IMG/VR virus record: IMGVR_UViG_3300021088_000015
Coordinates: 1 to 53,462 of that record
Length of the DNA stretch: 53,462 bases
From: a virus
Taxonomy: Duplodnaviria; Caudoviricetes
Direction: 5' to 3' (one strand)
Below the pieces are notes generated by a model, which was not told the origin of the DNA, made no database searches, and saw nothing but the letters and a program-made list of their open reading frames with translations. This document shows positions 17,030-38,454 of this stretch, in pieces. The position numbers and the translations under genes are program-made. Position 1 is the first letter of the stretch. The number at the start of each line of letters is the position of its first letter.

Positions 17030-17045
17030 GTCCTTGTTCTCCTTC

Positions 17046-17849: not shown

Positions 17850-18754
17850 CGGTCGGCCCCGTCCGGGATCGGCGCGACCTCAGGCCAGCCCCCGTCGTCG
17901 GGCTCAGGGGTCGGCTCGGACTGCGACGCGGGCCGGTGCGGAGCGGGAACGGCCCCGGTGATCTCCTCGACCGTGACGCGCTCCACCGGGAACTCGTCCT
18001 CGATCCGGACCTCACGCCGCTCGATCGACCGGAACACGATGCCGAGCTGCACGACGTCGTACTCATCCCACCGATCGGCCGGCTGCCCGAGCTTCTGCTC
18101 GATCTGCCCGAGCGTGACCCCCATCCCCTTGAAGCCCTGGACGGCGTCGGTGATGCGGTGCGCCAGCGGACGGCCGCCGCCGTTCTTGAGGGTCTCCCGG
18201 CAGATCTGCTTGGCCTCTTCAGTGAAGAACGGCGGCAGGATCGCGTAGATGGCCTCCCGGACGCGGCGGGCCCCGTTGTTGGCGTTGTTCTCGTAGATGT
18301 CGCGGACGTCGGTGAGCCGCTCGGGGCCGCCGTTCTCCTTCTTGCGGTCCCGCAGGTGGGGGACGATGAAGGTGTTGCTGTTGCGGGTGTTGGTCTGGAC
18401 GTCCCACGCGAACGCGATCATCTCGGACTGCCCGTACTCGTCATCCCTGCGCAACTCCGCGATGCCGTACTGGACGTTGCCGAAGCAGCGGGCGAGCTCG
18501 CGGGCGAGGTGCACGGTGGGTCCGGTGACGGTCTGCCCGCCGCGCGGGAACCGGTAGAACGCGCGCTCGGCGAGGTACAGCTGCTTGCAGGAGTCCTGCA
18601 TGGTGGCGCGGGCCAGCTGCAGGCTGCGCGGGCACTGCTGGGCGACCTGGACGGCGGCGAGGACTTCGGCCGCGGCGCGGGTCTGCTCCACGGCGGTGCC
18701 CTGCCCGACGCGGCCGGGGGCGGGCAGGTTCAGGGTGGTTGGCTCGGGGTTCAC
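17846..18754 (-). CDS. Putative single-strand annealing protein (functional partner of RecE-like nuclease)
   Basis: AFYRFPRGG..VTGPTVHLARELARCFGN motif; coupled to exonuclease VIII gene; acidic C-terminal tail. Confidence 0.55.
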   Translation of the reverse strand: MNPEPTTLNLPAPGRVGQGTAVEQTRAAAEVLAAVQVAQQCPRSLQLARATMQDSCKQLYLAERAFYRFPRGGQTVTGPTVHLARELARCFGNVQYGIAELRRDDEYGQSEMIAFAWDVQTNTRNSNTFIVPHLRDRKKENGGPERLTDVRDIYENNANNGARRVREAIYAILPPFFTEEAKQICRETLKNGGGRPLAHRITDAVQGFKGMGVTLGQIEQKLGQPADRWDEYDVVQLGIVFRSIERREVRIEDEFPVERVTVEEITGAVPAPHRPASQSEPTPEPDDGGWPEVAPIPDGADR

Positions 18755-19629
18755 GCTGACTCCTTCATGCGCTCGTGCTGCTTCTCGGCCCAAGCGGGCA
18801 GCTGGATGAGTTCGATCTCGTCACTGAAGGCCGGCCAGCGCCCGGACCGCTTGCACTCGCGGTAGAGGGAGATCGCGTCGCGGTTCAGCTCCCGCCCGAT
18901 CTCCATGGCGACCTGGTCGAGCTGGATGACGGTCACGATGTACGGCGGCGTTTTCTGCTGGAACACGAACACGAACGCCGGGTCTTCGGCGAGGCCCAAG
19001 GCCTTCACGCCGTCCAGGTACCAAGGGGCTTGCTGGTGGTACCCGTGCTGGTGAACGGCCTTCTGGATGCCCTCAGGGCTCACGTCGTGCGCGGTCTTGT
19101 AGTCCGGCACGATGAACCGACCGGGGCCCTGCGCGGGCAGCCAGTCGAGGCGGGCCCGCAGGTTGACGCCGGTCGCCTTGTCCTTCCAGAACAGGGACTG
19201 CTCCGGCCGGCCGCCGCGCTTGGGGTCGAACAGGGCGGACGCGACGGGGTGTCTGCGCAGTACGGCGGCCATGGCGAGCACCTGCTCGTACTCGGCGCGC
19301 TTGAGCGGCACCGCCCCGTCGTCGTAGGCGGCGGCCTTGAAGTCGCGGGCTTCCTTGGTCCGCCACTCCTCGACGTCGGCGACGCGTAGTTCCGGGCCGG
19401 TGCCGAGGACCATGTGGTGCGCGGCGTGCCCGTAGTCCCACACCTTTTTGTGCCCCTGCCCGTGGTCCTGCTCGTACCGGAACAGGGCGGGGCAGCTGGG
19501 CGGGAGCAGTCGGCGCGCCCCGGAGGACGACAGGGATCCGCCGGGGACGGGGTCGCGGTGGTAGCCGTCGGCGGGCATGTCGTAAATACCCGGCTTGTCG
19601 ATGACGATCTGGTCCGTGGTGATGGTCAT
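18751..19629 (-). CDS. Exonuclease VIII/RecE-like PD-(D/E)XK nuclease (DUF3799-type)
   Basis: YH..LSSSG, G.AAH, RARLDW, DYKT, YHQQAPWY. Confidence 0.85.
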   Translation of the reverse strand: MTITTDQIVIDKPGIYDMPADGYHRDPVPGGSLSSSGARRLLPPSCPALFRYEQDHGQGHKKVWDYGHAAHHMVLGTGPELRVADVEEWRTKEARDFKAAAYDDGAVPLKRAEYEQVLAMAAVLRRHPVASALFDPKRGGRPEQSLFWKDKATGVNLRARLDWLPAQGPGRFIVPDYKTAHDVSPEGIQKAVHQHGYHQQAPWYLDGVKALGLAEDPAFVFVFQQKTPPYIVTVIQLDQVAMEIGRELNRDAISLYRECKRSGRWPAFSDEIELIQLPAWAEKQHERMKESA

Positions 19630-22457: not shown

Positions 22458-23063
22458 ATGGATCTCGCCCAACCACAGGTGGACGGGTTGCAGGATCCAG
22501 AGCAAGAGAATGATGTGCTGCGCGCTTTGCGGCGGCAGGCCGAGGCGCTCAGTGCGCAGATCGAAGATAGTCAGCGCCTTCTCCAGGCCACCCGCCAGCG
22601 GATCGTCATGGCCGAGGCCCACGAACGGCAGCGGCGCGCCCGCTACTACGACACCATCGCCGAGCACGGCAACCCGCCGCCCGACCTGACCGACGCGATC
22701 CGCACCCCCACCAGCTCCGGAGACGACTGGGCGATCTGGGTGCCCCTCGACAAAGGCCGCGGTGAGGTCCTGACGGTCATCGACGGCGGTGGCCGGCCAG
22801 ATGACCCGTACGGGGAGGCCGAGGTGCACCGGCATCTACGCGAGGCCGCGAGCACGACCGCTGGCGTGGGTGAGGAGTTCCGGTTGCGGCTGGCGGACGC
22901 ACCGCCCCCGCTGAAGGCCTACATGCTGGGGCCGGTGACTGATCCGCTGCTCGTGGTCAGCTCCGATATTCCGGTGGCCGAGCGCGGAGCGGCCGCGAGG
23001 TGGCTGATACGGATCGCGAAGGACAGGCAGGCGCGTATAGACATGATTGCCCGCCAGGGGTGA
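22458..23063 (+). CDS. Hypothetical protein downstream of repressor
   Basis: N-terminal coiled coil; 201 aa. Confidence 0.65.
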   Translation: MDLAQPQVDGLQDPEQENDVLRALRRQAEALSAQIEDSQRLLQATRQRIVMAEAHERQRRARYYDTIAEHGNPPPDLTDAIRTPTSSGDDWAIWVPLDKGRGEVLTVIDGGGRPDDPYGEAEVHRHLREAASTTAGVGEEFRLRLADAPPPLKAYMLGPVTDPLLVVSSDIPVAERGAAARWLIRIAKDRQARIDMIARQG

Positions 23064-23065
23064 CC

Positions 23066-23845
23066 ATGGGCGGCATGGACTCCCACCTCCCGCTCGGCGT
23101 CGACATCTGCCACCCCAGTCCCGCCCGCACCTATGACTACCTGCTCGGCGGTAAGGATAACTATCCGGTAGACCGGGAGGCCGCCGAGGCGGTCATCGCG
23201 GTCTGGCCCGGCATGCGCGACATGGGCCGCGCCGCCCGCGCGTGGGCGATGCGCGTGGTCACCTACCTGGCAGAGCAGGGCGTCGATCAGTACCTGGACA
23301 TCGGGTCCGGTCTCCCGACCGCCGAGAACGTTCACCAGGTCGCGCAGCGCATCAACCCGGCCGCGCGCGTCATGTACGCCGACAACGACCCCATCGTCTT
23401 GGCGCACGGCCGCGCCCTGCTGGCCGAGAACGACCGCACCGAGTACGTCGAGGCCGATGTGCGCGACCCGAAGGTGATCCTGGCCGGCGCGGCGAAACTG
23501 CTCGATTTCAGCCGGCCGGTCGCCCTGATCCTGTCGGTGGTCCTGCACTATGTGCCGGAGGATCCCGCCGAGCTGCTCGCCGCCTACGTCCAGGCGCTCG
23601 CTCCGGGCAGTTTCGTGGCGATCAGCCACAACACCACGCAGGGCATGGCGCCCGAACTACGCGAGTGGGTGGCGGGGGTTTTCCCGTCCGGCTGGTATCC
23701 GAGGACGCCCGACGACATTCTGCGGATCTTCCAGGGGCTCGAGCTGGTGGAGCCGGGCCTGGTCACCATTGAGCAGTGGCGTCCCACGGCGGAGCCTGTG
23801 CCGCTTCAGATGCCGCTGCTGGGCGGTATTGCCCGCGTCGGCTAG
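23066..23845 (+). CDS. Actinobacterial SAM-dependent methyltransferase (Methyltransf_19/DUF574 type)
   Basis: PSPARTYDYLLGGKDNYPVDR, QYLDIGSGLPT..NVH, DNDPIVLAHGRALL. Confidence 0.9.
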   Translation: MGGMDSHLPLGVDICHPSPARTYDYLLGGKDNYPVDREAAEAVIAVWPGMRDMGRAARAWAMRVVTYLAEQGVDQYLDIGSGLPTAENVHQVAQRINPAARVMYADNDPIVLAHGRALLAENDRTEYVEADVRDPKVILAGAAKLLDFSRPVALILSVVLHYVPEDPAELLAAYVQALAPGSFVAISHNTTQGMAPELREWVAGVFPSGWYPRTPDDILRIFQGLELVEPGLVTIEQWRPTAEPVPLQMPLLGGIARVG

Positions 23846-24027
23846 AGGTCGTGCTGACCTGCTTTGATCTGGGTTAGGAGGCCGCGCCAGGCCTGGGGTG
23901 TCAGGTGCAGGTGCGGGTCGCCGGGGCGTTTGGAGTCGCGCAGGCCTACAGCGCCGCGAAGGGCGCGCGCCTCCGCGCAGTTGCCCTGGTGTTCACTGCG
24001 GGTGCTCTTGCGCCATTGTGGCTGCAT
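23842..24027 (-). CDS. DUF397 protein
   Basis: WRKSTRS...NCAE...VGLRDSK.P..P.L....W. Confidence 0.9.
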   Translation of the reverse strand: MQPQWRKSTRSEHQGNCAEARALRGAVGLRDSKRPGDPHLHLTPQAWRGLLTQIKAGQHDL

Positions 24028-24901
24028 ATGCTCTGTCTCTCGCGGAGCGGAGGTCCGCCATCACGGCGGATATCAGTCTGATCGTATCCAGGCCCTTCGC
24101 GCCTGCGACGACCAATGTCTCAAACGTGAACCGGAAACGGTTCAGCGCGGCGTCCTCTTCAACCCAGATGGGGCCGCCGGTCGTCTCCAGGTAGCCTGCC
24201 TGCGGGCCCAGGAACTCCGGAAACGTCATCAGCACGAACGGCCCCGTTCCGGGCAGGGCGCCTGCCGAGAACGGCACGATGATGAGTTTCACCCGGCCGA
24301 GGCGGGCCATTTTGTCGAGGTGCCCGAGCTGCTGAAGCATCACGTCGTACCCGCCGACGAGGTTGCGCAGTGCGGCCTCGCCGAGCACGACCCACAGGTC
24401 AACCGGGTCGGTGGTGTCGGTGATCAGCTGCGACTGCCGTTCCTGGCGGACCGCGGCGAGCAGCTCGATCTCCTCGTCCGGCACATCTGGGCGTCGGCCG
24501 CGCATGAGGGCGCGGGCGTAGGCGGGGGTCTGGAGCAGCCCGGGGACGACGCTGGGCTCATAGTTCTGGATCTTGGATGCGGCGGCTTCCAGGCCGATGT
24601 AGGTGGAGTACTGGTCGCTCACGCCCCGGTAGGCGAACCACCAGCCGCGTTGGCGTGCTTCGCGGGCGATGCCGAGCAGCTCTTCGCGGCGCGGGTCGGT
24701 GACGCCGTAGAGGTCTAGGAGTGTGGCGACGTCGCTGATCTCGGGTAGCCGCCATTCGTTGCGTTCGGCTCTCGTCAGTTTCGAGGGGTGCCAGTTGAGG
24801 CGTTTGGCGACCTGTGTGACGGTCTGGCCGCTGTCCTCGCGCAGGGTGCGGAGTTCGATGGAGAGCAGGCGGCGGCGCACGGTGGGGCTGCGTCTGTGCA
24901 T
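23993..24901 (-). CDS. XRE HTH-DUF5753 regulator (WhiJ/Scr1-like)
   Basis: SPTVRRRLL..ELR.LRE, RGWW, GLEAAA, VPGLLQTPAYA, VM..QL.HL. Confidence 0.9.
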   Translation of the reverse strand: MHRRSPTVRRRLLSIELRTLREDSGQTVTQVAKRLNWHPSKLTRAERNEWRLPEISDVATLLDLYGVTDPRREELLGIAREARQRGWWFAYRGVSDQYSTYIGLEAAASKIQNYEPSVVPGLLQTPAYARALMRGRRPDVPDEEIELLAAVRQERQSQLITDTTDPVDLWVVLGEAALRNLVGGYDVMLQQLGHLDKMARLGRVKLIIVPFSAGALPGTGPFVLMTFPEFLGPQAGYLETTGGPIWVEEDAALNRFRFTFETLVVAGAKGLDTIRLISAVMADLRSARDRAYAATMAQEHPQ

Positions 24902-25232
24902 CTGGGCCTCCGTGCGCAATTTCGTAACTCCGGGCTTGTGTAGGTATTGCAGATTCTGTAGGCAAGCGGCAGTCTGGTCAAGCGCCAAGCACGGGGTTGG
25001 TGCGCCGAGCCAACGGGGGGTCGGCTAGCAAGAGGAGGGGCGCGGCGGGTGGACTCTCGCGAGATCCATCCCTGGCCGGAAACCCGCCGCGCCCTCTCCA
25101 ATCTAGCTGGCCACCTGATCGTGTTCCCGGGGAGGTAGGAAAGTACCGTCCCGCAAGCGGCTGCCCGGTATCGGCCGGGCATGCGACCCTGGACACCACC
25201 CCCTACCTCCCACGCTCCGCCAGGAGGCCGCC

Positions 25233-28324: not shown

Positions 28325-28867
28325 ATGAGCACGGCAGCCACCACCGAGGGAGCCACGATGAACGCCAGCACCGCAGCCGCCAAGGCCGGAGTCACCGTCG
28401 CGACGATCCGCCTCTGGTGCCGCGCCGGCGTCGTCTCCGCCCGCAAGACCACCGGGCAGTGGGTCATCGACAGCCGCTCCCTCGCCCACCGCATCGCCCT
28501 CGGCCGCAAGCCCGTCCCCGCCCCGCTGGTCACCACGGCCGCCGCCCCCGCGATCGCCGACATCGAGACGGCCGCCCGCGCCTACGACCAGGCCCGCCTC
28601 GACACCAACGCCGCCGCCCGGGTGAAGCGCAACGCCGAGAAGGTCCTCAAGCGCACCCCGGACGGGGTGTACGGCTCGGTGACGGTGGAGCGGTTCGAGA
28701 GCAGCCGCCAGGTCGCCGACCTGGACGCCATCCAGGCCCTGCTCGACTTGCACGGTCTCGGTGAGATGCCGATGAAGACCTGCGCCCCGTCGCTCACCCT
28801 CACCTTCGCCGCTGAGGCGACCGGTACCCCGGCCGCTCCCGCCATGGAACTCGCCCACGCCGCCTGA
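28325..28867 (+). CDS. Xis/MerR-like HTH protein with C-terminal domain
   Basis: AAAKAGVTVATIRLWCRAGVVSARK..GQWVID; ends ..LAHAA. Confidence 0.7.
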   Translation: MSTAATTEGATMNASTAAAKAGVTVATIRLWCRAGVVSARKTTGQWVIDSRSLAHRIALGRKPVPAPLVTTAAAPAIADIETAARAYDQARLDTNAAARVKRNAEKVLKRTPDGVYGSVTVERFESSRQVADLDAIQALLDLHGLGEMPMKTCAPSLTLTFAAEATGTPAAPAMELAHAA

Positions 28868-28911
28868 CCGACCGACTACCGTTTCCCCCGCCCACTCCCG
28901 AAGGAGTCGCT

Positions 28912-29340
28912 GTGATCTTCCATGACCCCATCTACGAACACGCCCTGAAAGACCGCGACTGGGCCCCCGCCGGTGGCACGTCCATGAACCGGGCGCGCGA
29001 CCTCAACGACGATCTGACCCGCCGGTTCACGGTCGCGCTCCGCGAGGCAGTCGACGCCGAGCCGGGCATGCACGGCAGCTGGGACGGCAGCCTCCCGTGG
29101 GTGTGGGTCGACGGCGACGAGCTCGGAGGCTGGTGGATCGGCCACGGGATATCCCACGAAATAGAGGCAGCCGAGGACGACCTGAAGACGTTCTTGTGGG
29201 CGGATTACGTCACCGACGCCGAGCCCCCCGTCGAACGGCCAAGGGCAATCAACGTGACCTTGGCTGGGCCTGGGGCGCGGGACGAGACCCGGCTGGCCCG
29301 GATGGTCGTGGAAGCGCTGCGCCCGTACGTACCGAAGTGA
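28912..29340 (+). CDS. Hypothetical protein
   Basis: AAGGAG RBS, 142 aa. Confidence 0.65.
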   Translation: MIFHDPIYEHALKDRDWAPAGGTSMNRARDLNDDLTRRFTVALREAVDAEPGMHGSWDGSLPWVWVDGDELGGWWIGHGISHEIEAAEDDLKTFLWADYVTDAEPPVERPRAINVTLAGPGARDETRLARMVVEALRPYVPK

Positions 29341-29363
29341 CCGCCGCCTGACCCCTTCGCACA

Positions 29364-29409
29364 GCGAAGCGCCCCGTACCTCCCGAAGCGGAGATGCGGG
29401 GCGCTTCGC
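29364..29409. terminator. Hairpin between convergent genes
   Basis: GCGAAGCGCCCCG...CGGGGCGCTTCGC 13-bp stem. Confidence 0.7.
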
Positions 29410-29410
29410 G

Positions 29411-29653
29411 TCAGCCGTCGGCGGGCGGCTGCCGTACGTACACGCCCATCCCGCGCACCGTCTCGACGAGGCCCTCTTCTTTGAGGATCTGCACGGCCTT
29501 GCGGAGCGTGTCCCTGGCCACCTCGAACTCCGCCTCCATTTGGACAATGGACGGGATTGCGCGGCCGGGCGGGATCTGCCCTGAGGTGATGCGCTGCCGG
29601 AGGATAGCCGCCACCTGCCGGTACGGCGGAACCGGCCCCTCCCTGTCGATCAT
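29411..29653 (-). CDS. Stand-alone GntR winged-HTH regulator (KorSA/TraR-like) 1
   Basis: PPYRQVAAILRQRITSG..PG..IPS...EFEVARDTLRKAV..L..EGLV...G.G.YV. Confidence 0.88.
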   Translation of the reverse strand: MIDREGPVPPYRQVAAILRQRITSGQIPPGRAIPSIVQMEAEFEVARDTLRKAVQILKEEGLVETVRGMGVYVRQPPADG

Positions 29654-29808
29654 GGCACAGACCCTAGGCGGGTATGGACGGGCAACCATAGCTAGCCCTG
29701 GGGGTAGTAGAGGGTGGACGGGGGTAGTACACCGGCCCTACGCTGCGGCCTGGGCGGGTGCGCTGCTGGCGACATCTGGCCGGGAAGCCCGGCGCACCCG
29801 CCGTGCGG

Positions 29809-30054
29809 CTACTCGGTCGGCGGCGACACGTACGTCCCGCGCTGGGGGACGGTGTACACCAGGCCCTGCTCGCGTAGGTGGCCGACGGCCCGCCGTACGG
29901 TCGTCCGCGCGACCCCCTCGAACTCCTCCATTAGCGTCTTCTCGCTCGGGATGGGCCGGTCCGGTTGGAGCTGGCCGGACGCGATGCGCGCGGCGACCCA
30001 CGCGGCGATCTGCTGGTACACCGGGGTCGGCGACTCGTGGTCGATCTCAGCCAT
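29809..30054 (-). CDS. Stand-alone GntR winged-HTH regulator (KorSA/TraR-like) 2
   Basis: PVYQQIA...IASG...IPSE..L..EF.VARTTVRRAV..L...GLV...RGTYV. Confidence 0.88.
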   Translation of the reverse strand: MAEIDHESPTPVYQQIAAWVAARIASGQLQPDRPIPSEKTLMEEFEGVARTTVRRAVGHLREQGLVYTVPQRGTYVSPPTE

Positions 30055-30075
30055 GATCCAAACGCTATCTGACCT

Positions 30076-30122
30076 GCTACGTTGCCCCTTATTTGGCTAC
30101 GTGCCTATACGTGTCGCTACGT
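30076..30122. promoter_or_regulatory. Helically phased TACGT operator array between GntR gene and transfer operon
   Basis: GCTACGT at 30076, 30096, 30116; TACGT also at 30108. Confidence 0.65.
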
Positions 30123-30141
30123 ATCGGCGTACCGTACTGCT

Positions 30142-30456
30142 ATGACTGCCCTCCGGACTGTGCGCAACGTCCCGGTACTCCCGGGCTTCATCACGAGCCT
30201 CGAAGACGGCATCCTCACCGCCGAACGCATCCACCCACTGACGCCCTACCAGCTCGCCTACGGGTGCAAGACCCGCGTCACCGCCCCGACCGCCGAAGAG
30301 CTGGACTGGCTGTGCGTCGCCGAGCGGGTGCACGCCGAGCTGGTCGCCAACGCCGAGCGGCAGGCCGCAACCCCGTGCCTGCCGCCCTACGACCAGGTCC
30401 CCGTCTCCAAGACCCTGCTCGGGCTGGACGAGCTCGGCACGCCCGACGGCGGCTGA
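30142..30456 (+). CDS. Hypothetical protein, first gene of putative transfer operon
   Basis: LTPYQLAYG...VTAPTAEEL; divergent from GntR. Confidence 0.65.
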   Translation: MTALRTVRNVPVLPGFITSLEDGILTAERIHPLTPYQLAYGCKTRVTAPTAEELDWLCVAERVHAELVANAERQAATPCLPPYDQVPVSKTLLGLDELGTPDGG

Positions 30457-30458
30457 CC

Positions 30459-30731
30459 ATGGTGGCGGCGGTGAACTGCGTCAGCCCTCACCTACTGTCC
30501 GCGCGCGATGACGCCGAGGAAATCGCCTGGTTCGCGGTGACCGTGGACAGCGCCCGCGTGATCGAGCATTCGTGCTCGTTCTGCCCCGGGCCGGGGTACG
30601 AGCTGTGCGTTCTGGGCGCCCGCTGGTTCATCCGCCGGACCAGCCGCAAAGGGACCCACGAGACGATGCGGTGGCGAGAGCGAACGACCAGGCGGTTGTG
30701 GGCCGAGCTGTTCGCCGGAGTAGCGCGGTAA
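30459..30731 (+). CDS. Hypothetical protein
   Basis: HSCSFC..YELC..G..FIRR. Confidence 0.65.
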   Translation: MVAAVNCVSPHLLSARDDAEEIAWFAVTVDSARVIEHSCSFCPGPGYELCVLGARWFIRRTSRKGTHETMRWRERTTRRLWAELFAGVAR

Positions 30732-30866
30732 GACCCCGAACAATCAGGCGGGCCCGGACGCGGTGATGAAAGCACCGGCCGGGCCCTTGATCAGGAAGAG
30801 ACCCTGACCCATGCAGAACCCTAGACACACCACCCCCGCGCCGACAATGACCCGGCGGGTGCGGTC

Positions 30867-31058
30867 ATGACCACCGCCGAACTCCTCATCCGGCTCCTAC
30901 TCGCCGCATGCTGCTTCCTGGCCGGTACGGGACTGGTCCTGTCCGTGGTCGCCGAACGCCACGGGCCGGTCGCCGCCGCGCTGCTGCTGGTGGCCGGGAC
31001 GACCGCGGTAGCGGTCTACGTCGCCTGGCCGCACCGGGGCGGTGGGGACCGTGGCTGA
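30867..31058 (+). CDS. Small two-TM protein (Spd-like by context)
   Basis: Two TM helices; overlaps next gene. Confidence 0.6.
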   Translation: MTTAELLIRLLLAACCFLAGTGLVLSVVAERHGPVAAALLLVAGTTAVAVYVAWPHRGGGDRG

Positions 31059-31812
31059 CCCCATCCGCCCGCCGGCGTCCCGCTGGGCCGTCGTCCCCCT
31101 CGTGGTCGTCGTGATCGGCATCATCCTGGTCGCGTTCCGGGGGTCGTGGGGGGCGATGCGGGACGCCGCGCTCGCCTGCCATTTCGATCAGTCCAGCGCG
31201 ACCCTCTACCCGTTCGCTGTGGACGGCCTCCTGGTCGTCGCGATCCTCGCCGCGGTGCTGCTGCGTCACGATGCCGGGGCGTCCCGGTACACGCTGGGGA
31301 TCATCGCGGGGTACACCGGGGCGTCGTGGCTCGTGAACTTCCTGCACGGCCTTGGTTGGTTCAGTGCCGACCCGGTGACGCACCTGCGTCCCGTTCCGCC
31401 GTGGTACGTGGTGTGCGTGATCGCCTCACTGGTGATCGGCAGTATTTTCCTGGGGTCTCACCTGCTGGTTTACGTGTGGCGTCACCTGTTCCCCGACGCC
31501 GCCCCTGAGCAGGGGCCCGGCGATGTGTACCAAGGCGGTACGGACACCGACCGTGCCGTCCCGCCCGTTCCAGAGCCTCCCGCGAACAAGTACGAGGCGG
31601 CGAAGCGGGCCTACCGGCACAGCCTCACTCCCGGCATGGCGCGCCTGTCCCAGAAGGCGCTCACGGACCAGTTCGGGGTGTCCAAGCGCGAGGCCGGGAC
31701 GGTGCAGTCCGAGGTGTCCCAGGAGATCGCCGACGAAGCCGCCGCGGCGGATGCTCCGGAGCCCGATGACGTACCGGCGCAGCACACCCCGAACGGGCAT
31801 GTGACGGCATGA
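31051..31812 (+). CDS. DUF2637-type multi-TM protein (Spd-like)
   Basis: AF.GSWGAMRD.A, YPFAVDGL..A, about 4 TM helices, C-terminal HTH-like segment; ATGA-coupled to TraB. Confidence 0.75.
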   Translation: MADPIRPPASRWAVVPLVVVVIGIILVAFRGSWGAMRDAALACHFDQSSATLYPFAVDGLLVVAILAAVLLRHDAGASRYTLGIIAGYTGASWLVNFLHGLGWFSADPVTHLRPVPPWYVVCVIASLVIGSIFLGSHLLVYVWRHLFPDAAPEQGPGDVYQGGTDTDRAVPPVPEPPANKYEAAKRAYRHSLTPGMARLSQKALTDQFGVSKREAGTVQSEVSQEIADEAAAADAPEPDDVPAQHTPNGHVTA

Positions 31813-33647
31813 CCGAAGAATTGGCGCGCCGCCCCCTGTTCGCCGTCCCCGACCCGGTCGAGGACGACAGTGAGGTGATCGTCGGGGAGATCGTCGGCCA
31901 CCCTCCGCTCCCGGTGCGGAGGGTGGCCGTCCGCATGCCGTCGGCCCGGCCGGCCGGGCCCGTCCTGCGCGGGGTCGCCGTCCACGCCGGGTACGGGGTG
32001 GCGGGGCTGTGGCGGGCGGGCACCATGCTCTGGCGGTGGGTGGCGGCCGCCGAGCTGGCGCCGCAGCTCGCCGCGAAACCCGAGCTGGTCATCCGGGAGC
32101 GGGAACGGCGCCGGAAGATCGCAGCCTGGTCGGGTGGCGCATGCCTGGTCGCGGTGGTCTACAGCGCGACCATCTCGTGGGCGTGGCCGACCCTGACCCT
32201 GCTCGCACTCCTGGGCGCCGCGTCCGTAGCCGAGCGGCGCATCCGCCAGTCCGGCCAGCTCGACACCGGCCGGGCCAGCGCAGGCCGCCACCCCGGTACG
32301 AAGGTCGTACGGCAGGCGGTCGCCGCGGCGAAGCTCGGGAAGTTCGACGACATCCGTGTCGTGGGCCCGGTGACGCGGGACCAGGGCATTGCGTGGACTG
32401 CCGTTGTGGAGCTGCCGCCTGGCGGCACGTACACCGCGTCGGCCAAACGCCACGGCGAGCTGGCGGGCGCGCTCGGCGTGGGTGTGTCCCAGCTCGCCAT
32501 CGATCCCGTGCGGGGCCACAACGGGCGGGTGACGCTGTGGTGCGCGGACTCCGACCCTCTCGGTGGGGCGTCGTTGCCGTCCTCGCTGGTCGGGCGCACC
32601 GACGCGTTCGACGTGTACGGGGAGAAAGTGCTGGTCGGGTACGACATCCGGGCCCGGCCCATCGGGTTCAGCCTGCTTGAGCGGTCCCTGCTGATCGGCG
32701 GCGAGCCGGGGGCGGGGAAGTCGGTCGGCTCGAACAACGTCCTGTGCTCCGTGGCCCTCGACCCCCGCATGCCCATGTGGTTGATCGACGGGAAGGGCGG
32801 CGCTGACCTGTCCGATTACGAGGACATCGCCGCCCGGTTCCTGGCCGAACCGGACCCGAAGGCGCTACTGGGCATCATCGGTGACGCCCAGGACGACATG
32901 TCGGACCGGTACCGGGCGCTGAAGGGGGCGGGGGAGAAGAAGCTGACCGGTGACCTCGCCGAGGAGCTCGGCTTCCACCAGGCGCTCTTTCACATCGATG
33001 AGCTCCAGTTCTTCGTGGCGTCGAGTCTCGGTGATGAGATCACGGACGGCCTGTGGGACCTGGCGTCGCGGGGCCGTGCGGCCGGCTGGTCGGTGTCGGC
33101 TGCGACGCAGCGCCCCGGTGGTGAGGTCGTGAAGACGAAGTTGCGCGACATCCTGTCGATTCGGTGGGCGTTGTCGTGTACGACCCCGCAGGCCAGTGAC
33201 ACGATCCTCGGCCAGGGGTACGCGTCGCAGGGCTTCAACGCGCAGAGCATCGACATCGAAACGCAGCGGGGCGGCGGCTATCTGAAGGTCGGTGCGACGC
33301 CGGTTCTGATGCGTACGGGGATGCTGACCGATAACCAGATCAAGGGGATCACCCGGCGGGCGTACAAGCTGCGGGAGCAGGCCGGGACGTTGCCGAAGTC
33401 CGACGGCCGGCCCGCTGTGCGTCTGCTCCGTGCGGTGCTGGCGGCGATGGGTGCACGGGACAAGGTCGCGACCGTCGAGATCCTCACCGCGCTGGCCGGG
33501 GTGGCGGAGTATGCGGAGTGGTCGGCGGAGCAGTTGGCGGACGCGTTGCGTCCGCTCGGGGTGCGGCCGGGCGATCAGTGGATCAGTGGATCGAACCTGC
33601 GCGGTTACCGCCGTGCGGACGTGGCCCGGGCCCTCGAACGGGCCTAG
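31809..33647 (+). CDS. TraB-like FtsK/SpoIIIE conjugative DNA translocase
   Basis: N-terminal TM pair, Walker A GGEPGAGKS, LIDGKGG, Walker B FHIDELQ, GRAAG..ATQRP, C-terminal wHTH (Y.EW..EQLADALRPLGV...NLRGY). Confidence 0.85.
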   Translation: MTEELARRPLFAVPDPVEDDSEVIVGEIVGHPPLPVRRVAVRMPSARPAGPVLRGVAVHAGYGVAGLWRAGTMLWRWVAAAELAPQLAAKPELVIRERERRRKIAAWSGGACLVAVVYSATISWAWPTLTLLALLGAASVAERRIRQSGQLDTGRASAGRHPGTKVVRQAVAAAKLGKFDDIRVVGPVTRDQGIAWTAVVELPPGGTYTASAKRHGELAGALGVGVSQLAIDPVRGHNGRVTLWCADSDPLGGASLPSSLVGRTDAFDVYGEKVLVGYDIRARPIGFSLLERSLLIGGEPGAGKSVGSNNVLCSVALDPRMPMWLIDGKGGADLSDYEDIAARFLAEPDPKALLGIIGDAQDDMSDRYRALKGAGEKKLTGDLAEELGFHQALFHIDELQFFVASSLGDEITDGLWDLASRGRAAGWSVSAATQRPGGEVVKTKLRDILSIRWALSCTTPQASDTILGQGYASQGFNAQSIDIETQRGGGYLKVGATPVLMRTGMLTDNQIKGITRRAYKLREQAGTLPKSDGRPAVRLLRAVLAAMGARDKVATVEILTALAGVAEYAEWSAEQLADALRPLGVRPGDQWISGSNLRGYRRADVARALERA

Positions 33648-33748
33648 ATCGGGTGCGCGGAGGGTCCTAGATCTAGGGTGTCAGCCCCTAGATTCTAGGA
33701 CCCCGTGCGCGACTCCTAGGGGGCCACTGACCTGGGAACTAGGGTGTC
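33643..33748. repeat. CTAG-rich direct/inverted repeat cluster (candidate clt / TraB recognition site)
   Basis: Seven CTAG at 33644, 33667, 33673, 33688, 33695, 33716, 33739; CCTAGAT x3; CTAGGGTGTC x2; inverted GGGTCCTAGA/TCTAGGACCC. Confidence 0.7.
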
Positions 33749-33826
33749 TCGGACCCTCTCGGGTGGGCGGCAGGTCAACTCAGTTTCGTGCTCACCGAGG
33801 GCGCACAGAAGGAAGAGGTATCGGCG

Positions 33827-34009
33827 ATGGGTTGGATCAGTAAGAGCCAGCAGGACCGCGACCACCGGGGTCTGCGGAACGTGTGCGGCGCGTGCGGCCA
33901 CGAGGGGACCGGCCACGACCCGCTGTGCAAGACCGACACCGGGTCGCGTGTCCACACCAGCCATGTGGACGACCCCAAGTCCGGTCTGTTCGGCAAGCGC
34001 CAGAAGTAA
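33827..34009 (+). CDS. Small Cys/His protein
   Basis: GAGG RBS; CGACGH...H..H. Confidence 0.6.
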   Translation: MGWISKSQQDRDHRGLRNVCGACGHEGTGHDPLCKTDTGSRVHTSHVDDPKSGLFGKRQK

Positions 34010-34039
34010 CCCCCCGCCCGGCGACAAGGAGACGAGCAC

Positions 34040-34516
34040 GTGATCAACGCAAGACAGGCGGCCCGTACCGCTACCGGGATGGCCCTCCTCGGGCTGCTCC
34101 TCATGGGCGCCCAGAAGTGCGACACGACCACCAGCGGCGGAGGAGGTGGCGGCGGCGGCGCGGGCTCGCAGGGCGACTGCACGTTCCAGGAGGTGCGCCC
34201 GCCGTCCACGTTCCCGGCGCCGGACGGCAGCACGCTATGGATCACCTCGGCGGTGATCGTGGCATGCGACCCGCCGCCGACCTCGCACCGCCTGGTGATG
34301 CAGCTCCAGAAGTACTCGGGTGGCGCCTGGGTGACGATCTGGATTGAGCACCCGGACACGACCATCCCGGGTGCGGGCGGATACAGGTCCGTGATCGTCT
34401 ACAACGCCTGCGACCCGGGGCGGTGGCGCCTGAAGGTGCGGATCACCGGCAGCACCAAAGCTGGCACCCCGTACCAGGTGGACCAAGTCACCACCACGTC
34501 ACGGATTACGTGCTGA
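34040..34516 (+). CDS. Putative secreted/lipoprotein with Gly linker
   Basis: Signal peptide ending LLLMGAQKC; poly-Gly; four further Cys. Confidence 0.65.
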   Translation: MINARQAARTATGMALLGLLLMGAQKCDTTTSGGGGGGGGAGSQGDCTFQEVRPPSTFPAPDGSTLWITSAVIVACDPPPTSHRLVMQLQKYSGGAWVTIWIEHPDTTIPGAGGYRSVIVYNACDPGRWRLKVRITGSTKAGTPYQVDQVTTTSRITC

Positions 34517-34525
34517 GATGGTGTC

Positions 34526-34843
34526 ATGACAGAGCGAGATGAGCCGGGCCTGCTCACGGCGGGACTCCGGTACGGCGGCCCGTCGCGTCGCCGCTGGTGG
34601 CGCAGGCTACGCCGCCGCCCCCGTACGGAACCCCAGGCGTCCTGGATCCTCCAGTACTTCGACACCACGGGCTGGACGCTGAGGCTCCGCAGCTCAACAC
34701 CGGGCGACCTTGAGTTGCCGCTGGCGTTCGCCAACCGGGACGTGCCCGCCAGCGACCGTGAGGCCGCTCACGAGTGGGCGTTGAGCGTGCTGCCGGCCGG
34801 TGTTGAGCACACGGTCAGCATGGTGTCCGAGCGCCAGAAGTAA
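34526..34843 (+). CDS. Hypothetical protein
   Basis: 105-aa ORF. Confidence 0.55.
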   Translation: MTERDEPGLLTAGLRYGGPSRRRWWRRLRRRPRTEPQASWILQYFDTTGWTLRLRSSTPGDLELPLAFANRDVPASDREAAHEWALSVLPAGVEHTVSMVSERQK

Positions 34844-34861
34844 CCGGGGGATGATGAGCGC

Positions 34862-35158
34862 ATGAGGAAGATCTACCGCTACGAACTGCCGGTGGACGGC
34901 AAGACCCACGCGCTCAAGATGCCCCTCTTCTACATGAAGCAGGGATTCCGTCGAGTCGAAGCAGTCCGTGACGACCTGATCGAATTCTGGATCCAAACAG
35001 ATCATCTAGAGAACGTGACAGAGGGACCCTATGTGCACCTCTTCACGGCGCTCGGCACCGGCCATGACGTACCGGACGGTGCGTGGATACTCGGCACGAC
35101 GGGGCGCACCCCGAGCGGTCTCGTCTGGCATCTCTGCGAGATCGACGCAATCGTGTGA
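34862..35158 (+). CDS. Hypothetical phage protein
   Basis: IYRYEL...GTGH.VP...GT...LVWHL. Confidence 0.65.
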   Translation: MRKIYRYELPVDGKTHALKMPLFYMKQGFRRVEAVRDDLIEFWIQTDHLENVTEGPYVHLFTALGTGHDVPDGAWILGTTGRTPSGLVWHLCEIDAIV

Positions 35159-35283
35159 CCAACCGCGCGGGCCAACCATCAACTCAGGGTTGAGACTTCG
35201 CCAGGAATCGGCCCTCCCGGGGTAGATAGCTTGCGGGAATGTGCATTCCCGATGGGTATCCGGGGAGCCAGTGGTTCGGGAAG

Positions 35284-35334
35284 ACCTTAAGGTTCCTCTT
35301 GCGGAGTGACCTTAAGGTCTGTAAGGTTTCACTC
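35284..35334 (+). promoter_or_regulatory. Leaderless promoter with two ACCTTAAGGT palindromes
   Basis: Palindromes at 35284-35293 and 35308-35319; TTGCGG-17-TAAGGT-7-ATG. Confidence 0.65.
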
Positions 35335-35577
35335 ATGAGCCTACAGCGCATGCCGATCACCCCCGCCACGTTCCGGCGTCTCAAGGCGGCCTCCCTGCGT
35401 GGCGGCCTCGTACTCGACCTCCTCCCCGAGCAAGTCGAGCAGGCGCTCCGCTATCGACTGATCGAGCAGGACGGGAACGAACTCCGGATCACGCCCGCAG
35501 GACGCACGGCATGGGCAGAGCGCGAGGCGCTCGGCGAATACGACCTCGCCAGCATCATCTCTGCCGAGGACGCGTGA
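35335..35577 (+). CDS. Small winged-helix-like hypothetical protein
   Basis: L..RLIEQ...LRITPAGR; TGATG-coupled to Phd gene. Confidence 0.6.
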   Translation: MSLQRMPITPATFRRLKAASLRGGLVLDLLPEQVEQALRYRLIEQDGNELRITPAGRTAWAEREALGEYDLASIISAEDA

Positions 35578-36206
35578 TGGCCGAGCAGATCGGCATCGAG
35601 GACGCCCGAAAGAACCTCGGCCCGCTCGTCCACCGGGTTCAGCACGGTGGAGCTGAGATCATCCTGACCCGCAACGGCAAGCCCGCAGCCCGCATCGTCC
35701 CGATCCCCCAGGAGCCCGCCGTGACCGACACCTACACCGACGCGATCCGCGACGCCTACCTTGGCGCCCGTAAGCGGCAGTGGGCCACCATCCACGACCA
35801 CGTCGCCGCCTACCTGACCGGAACACCCGCCGACCTGTTCGAGGTGCCGTGGTGGCGGGCGTGGTTCGGTAACACCCAGACCTCCCAGACGGCCCTGACC
35901 GTACGCCGGGACGAGTTCGCCGCCGCGCTCGGCGAGGTGGTCGACCTGGAGATGCTGCGGATCGCGGTCGCCACCGGCAGGCAGTACGACGAACCGGCGG
36001 TGCTGGCCGAGGTCGACATGGACGCCGCCTACCTGCGGGTAGCCGCATCCGTACTGCGCGCCATCGTCACCGAGGAACTGGACCTGGCGCGCAGGAGTGC
36101 CCTGTTCCAGGCCGAGGACGAAGACGGCGAGGTCAACGAGGAACTCGCACTGCGAGGTGTGGGAGAGCTCGAACAGCGCGTCCTGGCCATGCTGCCCCCG
36201 GAGTAA
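35577..36206 (+). CDS. Phd/YefM-domain protein with long C-terminal domain
   Basis: IGIEDARKNLGPLV.RV..G..IILTRNGKPAARIVP. Confidence 0.75.
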   Translation: MAEQIGIEDARKNLGPLVHRVQHGGAEIILTRNGKPAARIVPIPQEPAVTDTYTDAIRDAYLGARKRQWATIHDHVAAYLTGTPADLFEVPWWRAWFGNTQTSQTALTVRRDEFAAALGEVVDLEMLRIAVATGRQYDEPAVLAEVDMDAAYLRVAASVLRAIVTEELDLARRSALFQAEDEDGEVNEELALRGVGELEQRVLAMLPPE

Positions 36207-36218
36207 TGACCCCGCACA

Positions 36219-36257
36219 ACGAAACGCCCCGCCCTCCGAAGAGAGCGGGGCGTTCGT
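36219..36257 (+). terminator. Hairpin (CGAAACGCCCCG family)
   Basis: AACGCCCCGC...GCGGGGCGTT. Confidence 0.7.
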
Positions 36258-36318
36258 GCTGCCGCCCGTCCATGGCGCGGCAACTGCCCGATGGGTATCC
36301 GATGGGCCCGGTAGCCGC

Positions 36319-36334
36319 TCGAAGATCCGTTCGA
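36319..36334. promoter_or_regulatory. Actinobacterial LexA (SOS) box
   Basis: TCGAAG-ATCC-GTTCGA, one mismatch to TCGAAC-N4-GTTCGA; just upstream of TATCGT -10. Confidence 0.6.
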
Positions 36335-36354
36335 TTCGGGGCGTATCGTGGCAC

Positions 36355-36597
36355 GTGATGAACGACCGCCCGAACCCTGACCCGCAGTACGGGCCCCGGA
36401 TCTGCCCGTACGGGCACCCAATGCTGCCGGGCCGGAAACTGGTCGGCTGGTTGGCGTGTTTCTGTTTCTCCCCAGGACCGCAGCACGCTCGCGGGCACCG
36501 CACGTACCAGTGCCGGGCGTGCGAGGAGGCGGGGTGGACGACGGTGGCGTACTACCCGGCGCATCTCGGCGGCGGGCGGCCGGAGACGCGGTGGTGA
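36355..36597 (+). CDS. Small Zn-binding protein, putatively SOS-regulated
   Basis: CPYGH...VGW..CFC...GHRTYQCRAC. Confidence 0.7.
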   Translation: MMNDRPNPDPQYGPRICPYGHPMLPGRKLVGWLACFCFSPGPQHARGHRTYQCRACEEAGWTTVAYYPAHLGGGRPETRW

Positions 36598-36600
36598 ACA

Positions 36601-36645
36601 ACGAAACGCCCCGCTCCCATCGTTGAGTGGGGAGCGGGGCGTTCG
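36601..36645 (+). terminator. Hairpin (CGAAACGCCCCG family)
   Basis: AACGCCCCGCTCCC...GGGAGCGGGGCGTT. Confidence 0.7.
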
Positions 36646-36887
36646 GTGCTTCCGCCCGCTTACGTCCGCGCGAGGGAAGCAACCACGCGGTCAGCAGGAT
36701 CGGGCGCCCAGACGACGCTATTTCCCTAATGACCTGTCCGGCGTCAACCACGGTACGTCGGCCCGTAGATACAGCGCTGGTCAGGAGGTTCGGTACGCCC
36801 CGGCAAAGCCTGGGAAGTTCCCCGGGGTGCGGCATGTCGCTTGTCGATCCGTTGCCGACGATAGCGGATCAGGCCGACAGACCGCAG

Positions 36888-36933
36888 CGAAACGCCCCGC
36901 ACGTCAACGGGGAGAAGACATGCGGGGCGTTTC
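36888..36933 (-). terminator. Hairpin (CGAAACGCCCCG family)
   Basis: GAAACGCCCCGCA...TGCGGGGCGTTTC. Confidence 0.7.
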
Positions 36934-37316: not shown

Positions 37317-38201
37317 TCAGGTGACAGGTGCCGTCCAGCTGGCCGCCCAGGTGGCCTTGTCGACGTGGCCCGTGACCGGCAGGTGCTTCTCCGCCTGGAA
37401 CGCATGGCACACCGCCTGCGACGCCGGGCCGTACTGCCCGTCCGCGACGATCCGCCACCCGCGCGCAGCCATCTGCCGCTGCCACACCAGCACGTCGGTG
37501 CCCTGCGTCGGGTCGACCAGCACCCGGCCCGGCCACGGCGGGGCAACGGGAGGCTTGCCCGGCGGGACGACCGGCGGCTTCACTGGCGGCTTGGTCGGAG
37601 GCTTCACCGGCGCCCCGCCCACCACCCACTGCCCGTAGTCCGCCTTGACGGCCCGGTCGAAGTCCAGGCCGACACCGCCGATCACGTGGTCGTTGCTGTA
37701 CTGCTGCAGCTGCGCCTTCGGCTCCCACTTCCCCCCGGACCAGGCATATGTCTGCCAGCCCCAGGTGATCTTGCTCGCGCTGAACGCACGGGAGACCGCG
37801 TCGTACCCGCCGTACAGCCCGACCCTGCCGCGCCCGATGACGGACGCCGCACCGTCCAGGTAGGCGTTGATCGCGGCCTGCTGCCCGGGCGTGGCCGGGA
37901 AGTCCGCAGCGAAGTAGATCGGGCGCCCGGTAGGCATCCCGCACGCCTTACCCTGCGCGTCGGCGTCGCGAGCATCCTGGGCTCCGGCTGCGTGCCCGCC
38001 GAGCGCCCGGCTGGCGGTGGACTCCCAGACGACGACGATCGCGAGACCCGCGTCCGAGAGGGCCTTCGCCTCGGCCTTCGTGAGGTTCTTGCCGCTGCTG
38101 TCGTGGCTGAGGTACCGGCAGGCGAAGTGCTCGCCCGCGCGGGTCAGTGCGGTGACGCCCGGACGGCCCCACGCGTAGTCAACGCCCTGGATGGTGGTCA
38201 T
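37317..38201 (-). CDS. Endolysin: DUF1906 (GH25-like) catalytic domain plus peptidoglycan-binding domain
   Basis: GVDY, FACRYLS, VVVWE, IYFAAD, WQTYAWS; KPP linker; DGQYGP.S...FQ...L..TG.VD..TW. Confidence 0.88.
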   Translation of the reverse strand: MTTIQGVDYAWGRPGVTALTRAGEHFACRYLSHDSSGKNLTKAEAKALSDAGLAIVVVWESTASRALGGHAAGAQDARDADAQGKACGMPTGRPIYFAADFPATPGQQAAINAYLDGAASVIGRGRVGLYGGYDAVSRAFSASKITWGWQTYAWSGGKWEPKAQLQQYSNDHVIGGVGLDFDRAVKADYGQWVVGGAPVKPPTKPPVKPPVVPPGKPPVAPPWPGRVLVDPTQGTDVLVWQRQMAARGWRIVADGQYGPASQAVCHAFQAEKHLPVTGHVDKATWAASWTAPVT

Positions 38202-38202
38202 C

Positions 38203-38454
38203 TCAGGCACCCCCCGCCGCGGCGTGCTCCACGTCGGCCGCCACCTGGGCGACGACCGGCGCATCGTGGACGACGTCCGCCGCGACCTTCTCAACGGCCG
38301 GGGTGTCCTTCACCGCCACGTGCTCCACTGCCCGCAGCCGGTCCATCACCTCCGTCACGAGCCCCTGCAGGTGCTCGGGGATGTCGTGCACGGCGGCCTC
38401 GAGCCGCTGGACCAGCGACGGCTTAGCAGGGGTTGCGGGGGTTGGTGTGGTCAT
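38203..38454 (-). CDS. Hypothetical protein in lysis cassette
   Basis: 83 aa, amphipathic. Confidence 0.6.
   Translation of the reverse strand: MTTPTPATPAKPSLVQRLEAAVHDIPEHLQGLVTEVMDRLRAVEHVAVKDTPAVEKVAADVVHDAPVVAQVAADVEHAAAGGA

Follow-up and report, generated by a model that had tools for sequence, protein, structure and literature searches.

A putative DNA transfer module of the TraB type, with a clt-like repeat array, inside the closed genome of a temperate tailed phage from soil

The subject of this study is a module for TraB-type translocation of double-stranded DNA that is encoded by a tailed phage, IMG/VR virus record IMGVR_UViG_3300021088_000015, which derives from a soil metagenome and was analysed over its whole length of 53,462 bp (the window). 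The module lies between the serine integrase and the lysis genes and consists of two short GntR-type regulators, a divergent operon ending with a TraB-family ATPase, and a cluster of short repeats behind traB. It is intact, and it forms part of a closed phage genome; the repeat cluster is conserved in all eight compared members of the TraB clade to which the ATPase belongs. We assume that the module was derived from an actinomycete integrative and conjugative element (AICE), that it is functional, and that a temperate phage has kept it for the transfer or spreading of its own DNA. The probability of this reading is put at about 0.5, because every functional step in it had to be inferred. The finding is neither unprecedented nor unique: the plasmid-phage pZL12 is a precedent, the idea that SpdB2 proteins spread phage DNA is in print, and similar arrangements turn up repeatedly in public collections of viruses.

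The ATPase is 40% identical to the characterised TraB of plasmid pSVH1 over 419 amino acids (aa; BLASTP, E value 7e-82), and its best plasmid matches (conjugative Streptomyces plasmids that include pSVH1 and pSG5, and others of pFP11 size) reach 41-42% identity. Matches in 50,697 phage records do not exceed 33% identity over at most half of the protein, and none of the 73 matching records covers 80% of the query; a megablast search of positions 29000-36300 against the same records gave no match. Single-protein scans of viral and genome collections for close relatives of the window TraB returned none, nor did the same scan with the TraB of provirus G001, a syntenic relative described below. In a maximum likelihood tree of the motor domain (35 rows, quick search, LG+G4) the window protein falls into a clade of 16 rows, with a support of 97 in the Shimodaira-Hasegawa-like approximate likelihood ratio test (SH-aLRT), that adjoins the clade of pSVH1 and pSG5 and comprises proteins from Thermomonospora, Microbispora, Sphaerimonospora, Nonomuraea, Actinomadura and Nocardiopsis. 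All four chromosomal FtsK proteins are set apart from it by a branch with a support of 100, and an FtsK-like pair from a Mycobacterium and a Bacillus phage stands separately from TraB on long, well-supported branches; the NCBIfam FtsK model matches the window protein with an E value of only 1e-4. By sequence comparison the ATPase thus belongs to the TraB lineage, as the first-pass annotation of this DNA had proposed, and neither to chromosomal FtsK nor to the FtsK-like proteins of isolated phages. The same annotation had called the module Streptomyces-type. As a statement on the host this has to be corrected: because its closest relatives with a name come from Streptosporangiales such as Thermomonospora, Microbispora, Nonomuraea and Nocardiopsis, the host is probably a member of this order rather than a Streptomyces.

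The structural features of a TraB that had been read from the translation were all recovered. Hydropathy analysis gives one hydrophobic segment (aa 104-122), and the AlphaFold (AF2) model places long helices at 91-122 and 125-153, so that the N-terminal membrane anchor of a TraB protein is present. The Walker A motif GEPGAGKS is located at residue 298 and the ATQRP motif at 432; the Walker B residues D397 and E398 are invariant in all 34 aligned sequences. The full-length model (predicted local distance difference test, pLDDT, 83.5) retrieved FtsK motor domains as top Foldseek matches (E value 2e-17), followed by the conjugation coupling protein TcpA. The last 87 aa, modelled separately with nine relatives, reached a pLDDT of 90.6 and show the order H-b-H-H-b-b-H of a winged helix. 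Foldseek matches of this C-terminal domain were weak and none was significant (best E value 0.085), but those named among the ten best are mostly what we take to be DNA-binding proteins of the winged-helix type; a profile search of PDB sequences with the protein recovered FtsK and TcpA only and left the C-terminal domain without a match. The C-terminal domain appears to be winged-helix-like in the model, and DNA binding is predicted for it.

The remaining genes of the module are arranged around traB as first described, with a GntR pair facing a divergent operon that encodes a small transmembrane protein, a DUF2637 protein and the 612-aa ATPase. Both regulators are reduced to a winged helix-turn-helix (HTH) and GntR-1 is a candidate repressor of the Kor/TraR type; a hairpin between GntR-1 and the convergent gene upstream of it is likely a terminator at the left edge of the module. 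The operon's first open reading frame (ORF), at 30142-30456, had no match in the Pfam scan. The 63-aa protein further downstream occupies the position of a Spd-like small membrane protein. The DUF2637 protein has four overlapping hydrophobic windows (10-40, 51-78, 62-81 and 117-146), which suggest about four transmembrane helices, and is located directly upstream of traB, i.e. in the position of SpdB2; its stop codon overlaps the traB start (ATGA). It thus resembles a SpdB2-type protein in being predicted to span the membrane several times and in being translationally coupled to traB. A search yielded 102 homologues of it. DUF2637 is encoded in the ORF upstream of TraB at 5 of 96 loci, four of which are Streptomyces or Kitasatospora plasmid-like contigs, and an alignment search with DUF2637 detected only one IMG/VR locus and eight short metagenome loci. 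A predicted complex of TraB residues 45-175 with DUF2637 residues 1-160, run without controls, allowed no verdict, with a score of 0.00. A simple scan of 29200-34200 for promoters and terminators was uninformative, giving no promoter-like and three terminator-like signals compared to 1.0 expected.

The repeat cluster that had been noticed right after the ATPase gene begins at the traB stop codon and is of the TCTAGG type. Its words were found by a script that searches the surroundings of the traB 3' end for over-represented k-mers. Seven of the 26 CTAG tetramers of the window fall within 33644-33742, against an expectation of about 0.05 per 100 bp, and five of the seven window copies of TCTAGG/CCTAGA as well as all four copies of ATCTAGG are located in the array. 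When applied to pSVH1 as a positive control, the script found five copies of GACCCGGA, reportedly the published recognition word of pSVH1 TraB. The array begins with a palindromic core, which is followed by CTGACCTG and by further repeats. When about 150 bases after the traB stop codon were aligned for the eight clade members whose DNA was compared, all eight showed a matching array directly after traB with this same architecture, namely a palindromic core of four half-sites, the CTGACCTG landmark and further direct copies. The repeated word differs between them: it is TCTAGG in the window, TCTCGGG in G001, GTCTAG in the provirus G002 and GGGTCTA in the Nocardiopsis element L035. The array thus keeps its place and its architecture, and only the word changes, in a coordinated manner; this is how a protein docking site would be expected to behave, and binding by TraB is predicted. 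That TraB recognises repeated 8-bp motifs is stated in the excerpted texts of PMC3583192 and PMC4447253. The window gene is thus accompanied by the cognate short-repeat array that is typical of traB at or just after its 3' end. The landmark, in the form CTGACCTG(C/G)G, is found at about 33722-33732 of the window and also after traB in L003, L136, L004, L032 and L035; downstream of traB, CTGACCTG is common to the Streptomyces plasmids pSVH1 and pSG5 and to the Streptosporangiales clade. It may belong to clt as a conserved element or else serve the following gene as a promoter.

The carrier of the module is a complete phage genome. Positions 1-137 and 53326-53462 of the window are identical at 136 of 137 positions, and this 137-bp overlap of the ends falls within the major capsid gene. 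The genome is therefore a closed circle of about 53.3 kb free of host flanks; that IMG/VR lists the record as 'linear' is probably due to the single mismatch. CheckV completeness is 100%. ORFs were called by the G+C content of third codon positions (GC3) and then scanned against PHROGs and Pfam. Terminase, portal, protease, capsid, tape measure, minor tail protein, endolysin and integrase were all found in this one circle, which therefore represents a temperate siphovirus with full virion, lysis and early gene sets; the earlier description of a circular contig with complete virion genes was correct. A mostly plus-strand block of about 14 kb that separates the lysis genes from the early arm harbours, besides the TraB module, a large serine integrase together with a methyltransferase and an HTH/DUF5753 regulator. 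The first-pass annotation had stated that the module lacks a Rep and an integrase of its own. For Rep this holds, as none was found; the serine integrase, in turn, is located 2.6 kb from the GntR pair, outside the transfer operon, and is the sole integrase of the genome, a six-frame search of the whole window for tyrosine integrases having given no match. RepSA, Prim-Pol and DUF3631 were likewise absent from six-frame searches and Pfam ORF scans of the window, although the RepSA and DUF3631 searches gave no match in any of 14 control genomes either, so that their sensitivity is unchecked. Pfam scans of the window ORFs had no match to ParA, ParB or plasmid Rep, and a tRNA scan of the window found 0 genes.

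At the two module borders neither a coverage step nor att-like repeats were found. In the probable source run the stretch 22-38 kb is covered by Logan contigs at a depth of 18.3-25.2 without a single difference, and single pieces bridge both 29.3 kb (28718-29725) and 33.8 kb (31008-34135); these contigs were built from the same reads as the original assembly and thus exclude a coverage step but are not independent of it. No direct repeats of at least 16 nt flanking the module were found. The G+C content of the module (0.68-0.72) lies within the range of the whole window (0.62-0.73). Independent support for the presence of the module within the phage comes from synteny. Provirus G001 has the order of the window, with a DUF2637 gene, a small ORF, TraB (60% identity), endolysin and minor tail protein (39%), and the soil contig L147 carries a DUF2637 gene (63%), an ATPase and an endolysin (67%). 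The motor domain of the G001 protein (window residues 172-530) is identical in the alignment to a protein of Thermomonospora cellulosilytica, and a culturable strain of this species therefore appears to carry the provirus. Runs of two further studies contain relatives of the TraB region that are 90-95% alike.

The nearest relatives of the window TraB in bacterial genomes (L032-L036, from Actinocorallia, Nocardiopsis and Actinomadura; 43-50% identity) have no virion genes within 10 kb. L034 encodes GntR, a tyrosine integrase and a primase of the Prim-Pol or D5 class (Prim-Pol in this case), L035 GntR, a D5 primase, a tyrosine integrase and Nudix, and L036 Prim-Pol and ParA; of the two short contigs, L032 has GntR and Nudix and L033 is without matches to AICE accessory genes. 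By their gene content the members with enough flanking sequence are canonical AICEs, and because the annotated clade members in bacteria are of this kind, the phage presumably captured an AICE transfer module. A TraB alignment search detected 28 IMG/VR records, 22 of which also encode an HK97-type capsid, and ten of the 28 were inspected closely. Two of these (G001 and G002) have the arrangement of the window beside lysis genes. In six others (G004, G005, L009, L010, L020 and L023; L009 is a record with direct terminal repeats) a SpdB2-like gene and TraB are located a few kb upstream of terminase, portal and capsid, and in four of the six (G004, L009, L010, L023) a gene of the DUF6197 type or of phrog_19266 is also present. 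A full-length GntR was seen in L009, L023 and L018, the last of which carries the cassette without any packaging gene within 10 kb. The relatives found by means of the integrase and the minor tail protein were fragments without the module region. As a side observation, one edge of the record G003 (L124; 2352-12631) carries a tra module that nearly copies that of pSVH1, and behind it stand genes for a D5-type primase, an HTH_17 protein and a tyrosine integrase; xis is present as well. G003 thus represents an AICE that was taken up in a provirus call, and census work has to allow for such cases.

The traR-spd-traB-clt locus of pSVH1 and pSG5 is reportedly known from work by Reuther in 2006 and Vogelmann in 2011, and the kor-spd-tra-clt layout that had been proposed for the window does match it: a GntR regulator faces a coupled operon of small membrane proteins, a multi-transmembrane protein and traB, which is followed by short repeats. 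The differences concern the carrier, a 53-kb tailed phage instead of a 12-kb rolling-circle plasmid, the lack of a Rep gene in the window, and the GntR proteins, which are duplicated and HTH-only. Furthermore, the SpdB2 position is taken by a 256-aa DUF2637 protein in the window and by a 409-aa SpdB2 in pSVH1, the repeat word is of the TCTAGG type rather than GACCCGGA, and the window lacks the DUF6197 gene located behind traB in pSVH1. With the AICEs L032-L036 the module shares a homologous array after traB and GntR regulators, whereas the AICE accessory genes are missing from the window, which has a full virion set instead. In the plasmid systems TraB alone suffices for transfer, also between mycelia, the GntR regulator TraR has the Kor function and clt consists of 8-bp repeats, according to the excerpted text of Thoma et al. 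2015 (PMC4447253). If AICEs are defined by Int, Rep and Tra, as in the excerpted text of Ghinet et al. 2011 (PMC3218068), the window combines Tra (TraB) and an integrase (the serine recombinase) in one element, and a replication protein of the RepSA, RepAM/DUF3631 or Prim-Pol type was not recovered in the window searches with the limit on sensitivity given above for RepSA and DUF3631.

The first-pass annotation knew of no characterised phage with such a second route of spread. This view cannot be upheld, as a plasmid-phage with a transfer locus, pZL12/phiZL12, is on record and a proposal that SpdB2 spreads phage DNA has been published. Judging from the title of their work, Zhong and co-workers are said to have characterised replication, transfer and the plasmid/lytic cycle of pZL12/phiZL12 in 2010 (J Bacteriol 192:3747). 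In its record (GQ919031) an FtsK-like gene stands amid phage genes, along with GntR and two large neighbouring genes. It thus resembles the window in being a tailed actinophage genome with an FtsK/SpoIIIE-type tra gene (pZL12.71c), membrane genes and GntR, but it is a 90-kb extrachromosomal plasmid-prophage with ParAB, while the window phage is integrative, has a serine integrase and gave no sign of the ParA/ParB and plasmid Rep of such phage-plasmids in the Pfam scans. The FtsK-like protein of pZL12 is not significantly similar to the window TraB (BLASTP, best E value 0.28), which is of the pSVH1 lineage. Statements on pZL12 are found in PMC3583192 (on its tra genes), PMC4487206 and PMC7157519. 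The FtsK-like proteins of isolated phages (Mycobacterium Porcelain and relatives, Bacillus Moonbeam, Streptomyces Geonosis, Jaresh and AndoPrime) share the P-loop motor but form a separate long-branched group in the tree, and a clt or Spd context is unreported for them; the excerpted texts of two Streptomyces phage papers (PMC11536984, PMC13587820) mention FtsK-like genes in passing. A traB-clt cassette of the pSVH1 type in an integrating tailed phage is undescribed in the literature searched, from which subscription journals were largely absent. The features of the window are compiled in Table 1.

Table 1. Features of the module and of the surrounding phage genome (positions in the window).
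Feature	Position	Strand	Evidence or remark
TraB-family double-stranded DNA translocase, 612 aa	31809-33647	+	PF01580 FtsK_SpoIIIE, E value 1.2e-9; BLASTP; tree; AF2
clt-like array, starts at traB stop codon	33640-33765	.	about 9 TCT(A/C)GG(G/A) copies, both orientations
DUF2637 membrane protein, 256 aa, charged C-terminal tail	31042-31812	+	PF10935, E value 1.3e-8
63-aa protein, two hydrophobic helices (1-30, 32-55)	30867-31058	+	hydropathy; end overlaps next gene
Possible 90-aa ORF, weak gene call	30459-30731	+	ORF list; Pfam scan without match
First ORF of divergent operon, about 104 aa	30142-30456	+	GC3 0.85; start uncertain, listed ORF start 30082
GntR-2, 81 aa, winged-HTH only, tandem paralogue facing divergent operon	29809-30054	-	PF00392, E value 1.4e-15
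GntR-1, 92 aa, winged-HTH only, no UTRA effector domain	29411-29689	-	PF00392, E value 5e-17; phrog_9285, phrog_10724
Hairpin, 20-nt arms	29364-29409	.	inverted repeat, 90% complementary, 6-nt loop
Large serine recombinase (phage integrase)	25233-26828	+	Pfam Resolvase, Recombinase, Zn_ribbon_recom; phrog_95 integrase, E value 7e-75
Variable cassette: orf73, orf158, orf105, DUF7352, orf112, Phd-like N-terminus	33764-36210	+	Pfam; metagenome joints
Endolysin	37317-38294	-	
Minor tail	40387-43806	-	
Tape measure	43167-46007	-	
HK97-type major capsid	wraps across window ends	-	
ClpP-type protease	1143-2435	-	
Portal	2432-3796	-	
Terminase	4946-6379	-	
Early arm: RecE-like exonuclease, DnaQ-like exonuclease, WhiB-like, HTH proteins	21764 down to about 7000	-	

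Downstream, the module is adjoined by a cassette of 2.4 kb that forms part of its context and not of the transfer module itself. In relatives from three other soil metagenome runs this segment is replaced by 11-18 other letters, with joints from 33763 to 36211 in X3 and X4 and to 36219 in X2. One side of the X2-X4 joints is short (24-33 letters), and it is suggested with some reserve that the segment is a variable moron cassette. Near-identical hairpins rich in G+C (AACGAAACGCCCCGC ... GCGGGGCGTT) are located at 36218-36258, 36600-36644 and 36886-36932, and a similar one at 29364-29409; the first three punctuate the 0.8 kb between the accessory genes and the lysis cassette. Joints from other soil metagenomes fall at or near the hairpins (33763 to 36211, 33763 to 36887, and 36243 to 36634), as if the hairpins bounded exchangeable gene cassettes. 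The ORFs 33788-34009 and 34526-34843 share their terminal 16 nt (AGCGCCAGAAGTAACC; 33996-34011 and 34830-34845), and both products have the C-terminus ...RQK. Elsewhere in the genome an HNH/NUMOD3 homing-endonuclease-like gene (47062-47649, plus strand) stands on the opposite strand amid the tail gene block. At 23000-24988, by the integrase, there is an accessory set typical of actinomycete chromosomes, namely an S-adenosylmethionine-dependent methyltransferase (Methyltransf_19), a 61-aa ORF and an HTH_31/DUF5753 regulator; in L144 a relative of this regulator (45%) is paired with a DUF2637 gene.

How might such a module serve a phage? The two mini-GntR proteins would repress the divergent operon in the way of TraR/KorA in a Kil-Kor pair. 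Upon derepression, a membrane-anchored hexamer of TraB would bind to the TCTAGG-type repeats through its C-terminal winged helix and pump the phage's double-stranded DNA into an adjacent hypha, be it as the excised circle or as a replicative form. Together with the small transmembrane proteins, the DUF2637 protein would act in a Spd-like manner and carry the DNA across septal cross-walls, while the int and rep functions of an AICE would be supplied by the integrase and the replication genes of the phage itself. In a recipient free of repressor the incoming genome could then integrate or start lytic growth. In line with the first-pass annotation, the excised phage circle is a plausible substrate of TraB.

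Several points weigh against this model. The transfer of DNA by this element or its close relatives is plausible by analogy, and excision of the prophage without lytic growth has to be presumed. The window TraB scores 31.7 bits with the NCBIfam equivalog model NF041214 (plasmid_TraB), the cut-off of which is 800; this model evidently covers a narrower group. Because the window GntR proteins have no UTRA domain, which is present in TraR of pSVH1, the regulatory logic may differ from that of the plasmid. A BLASTP comparison of the DUF2637 protein with the SpdB2-position protein of one Streptomyces plasmid-like contig was not significant, and SpdB2 of pSVH1 itself has no Pfam match. The array is at the same time a large imperfect palindrome with arms at 33655-33671 and 33694-33710, and since its core can fold as a hairpin, it could be simply a terminator. 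Finally, the phage G005 (L121) shares structural genes with the window from tape measure to major head protein (33-64% identity), yet its TraB is a different one (44% identity, 740 aa) that is encoded with a 426-aa partner at 15919-19381 upstream of the terminase. On this comparison the module appears mobile among phages and not a fixed part of the window lineage; G005 suggests an independent capture or a relocation of the cassette, and because its structural genes are shared while a different TraB stands elsewhere, phages would have captured such modules more than once.

Alternatively, the cassette could act within one mycelium only and move phage DNA across septal cross-walls during infection or the establishment of lysogeny, rather than between individuals. 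In favour of this reading, TraB and Spd proteins direct intramycelial spreading and the SpdB2 homologues of the phages phiC31 and VWB have been proposed to spread phage DNA, according to the excerpted text of PMC4447253. The six IMG/VR records with the cassette a few kb before the terminase fit as well, since it is co-oriented there between early genes and terminase as if it belonged to the lytic programme. In the window, however, the operon runs opposite to the late genes and comes with divergent repressors of its own beside the integrase, as would a module of the lysogeny side, and the sufficiency of TraB for intermycelial transfer of plasmids, noted above from the same source, speaks for the wider role. 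The two roles are compatible and not mutually exclusive, and a function restricted to the single mycelium is considered unlikely, if worth keeping in view.

A somewhat smaller chance is given to the cassette being a moron for fitness of the lysogen or for exclusion, which would mobilise host DNA, interfere with AICEs or plasmids with a related clt, or exert a Kil effect. PHROGs assigns the TraB family (phrog_1358) to the category 'moron, auxiliary metabolic gene and host takeover', the neighbourhood is rich in accessory genes (Phd-like gene, DUF7352, HTH/DUF5753 regulator, methyltransferase), the adjoining 2.4-kb cassette varies between relatives, and unregulated TraB is toxic in plasmids according to the excerpted text of PMC4447253. 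But a cognate array was kept in cis after traB in all eight clade members compared, which is what a mover of its own replicon needs, and no defence family turned up, although no dedicated search was made.

It is rather improbable that the cassette is an inert passenger, i.e. an AICE fragment that was acquired by illegitimate recombination, has not yet decayed and is without function for the phage. For such a remnant would speak the absence of the Rep, Nudix and tyrosine integrase of its AICE relatives, the truncation of the GntR genes to the HTH, and the AICE nature of the closest TraB relatives from bacterial genomes. All ORFs are intact, however, with a GC3 as high as elsewhere in the genome, the catalytic motifs do not vary, and the gene order was kept in G001 despite only 60% identity of TraB and 39% of the minor tail protein. 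Moreover, the arrays of the window (TCTAGG) and of G001 (TCTCGGG) have diverged in their repeat word in a coordinated way, which implies selection on the pair of protein and site. Lastly, an artefact, be it an assembly chimera of phage and AICE or a nested separate AICE with its own ends, is conceivable for a soil metagenome record and in view of AICEs such as G003 among provirus calls, but it is very improbable given the closure of the contig inside the capsid gene, the even Logan tiling across both junctions (albeit from the same reads as the assembly), a G+C content within the range of the window, the lack of flanking repeats, of Rep and of a second integrase in our searches, and the synteny with G001 and L147, which is independent of the source assembly.

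If the module works as assumed, it would blur the boundary between transduction and conjugation in the bacteria that are the main producers of antibiotics. The spread of a prophage would require neither lysis nor a receptor and would be beyond the reach of defences directed against virions, and host ranges determined from plaques would underestimate the reach of such phages. The assumption is directly testable, as the Thermomonospora cellulosilytica strain that appears to carry the syntenic provirus G001 can be cultured. The comparison of arrays and C-terminal domains in turn provides a natural series for the co-evolution of a DNA pump with its docking word. It is also conceivable, and here we commit ourselves only tentatively and at somewhat less than even odds, that temperate phages of mycelial actinomycetes routinely carry working TraB/clt/Spd systems and thus travel both in virions and by contact-dependent pumping of naked double-stranded DNA. 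Arrival in a repressor-free recipient would then resemble zygotic induction, cells without a receptor would become infectable, and with the integrase and replication genes of the phage in place of AICE int and rep such elements would have the life cycle of true hybrids between phage and AICE.

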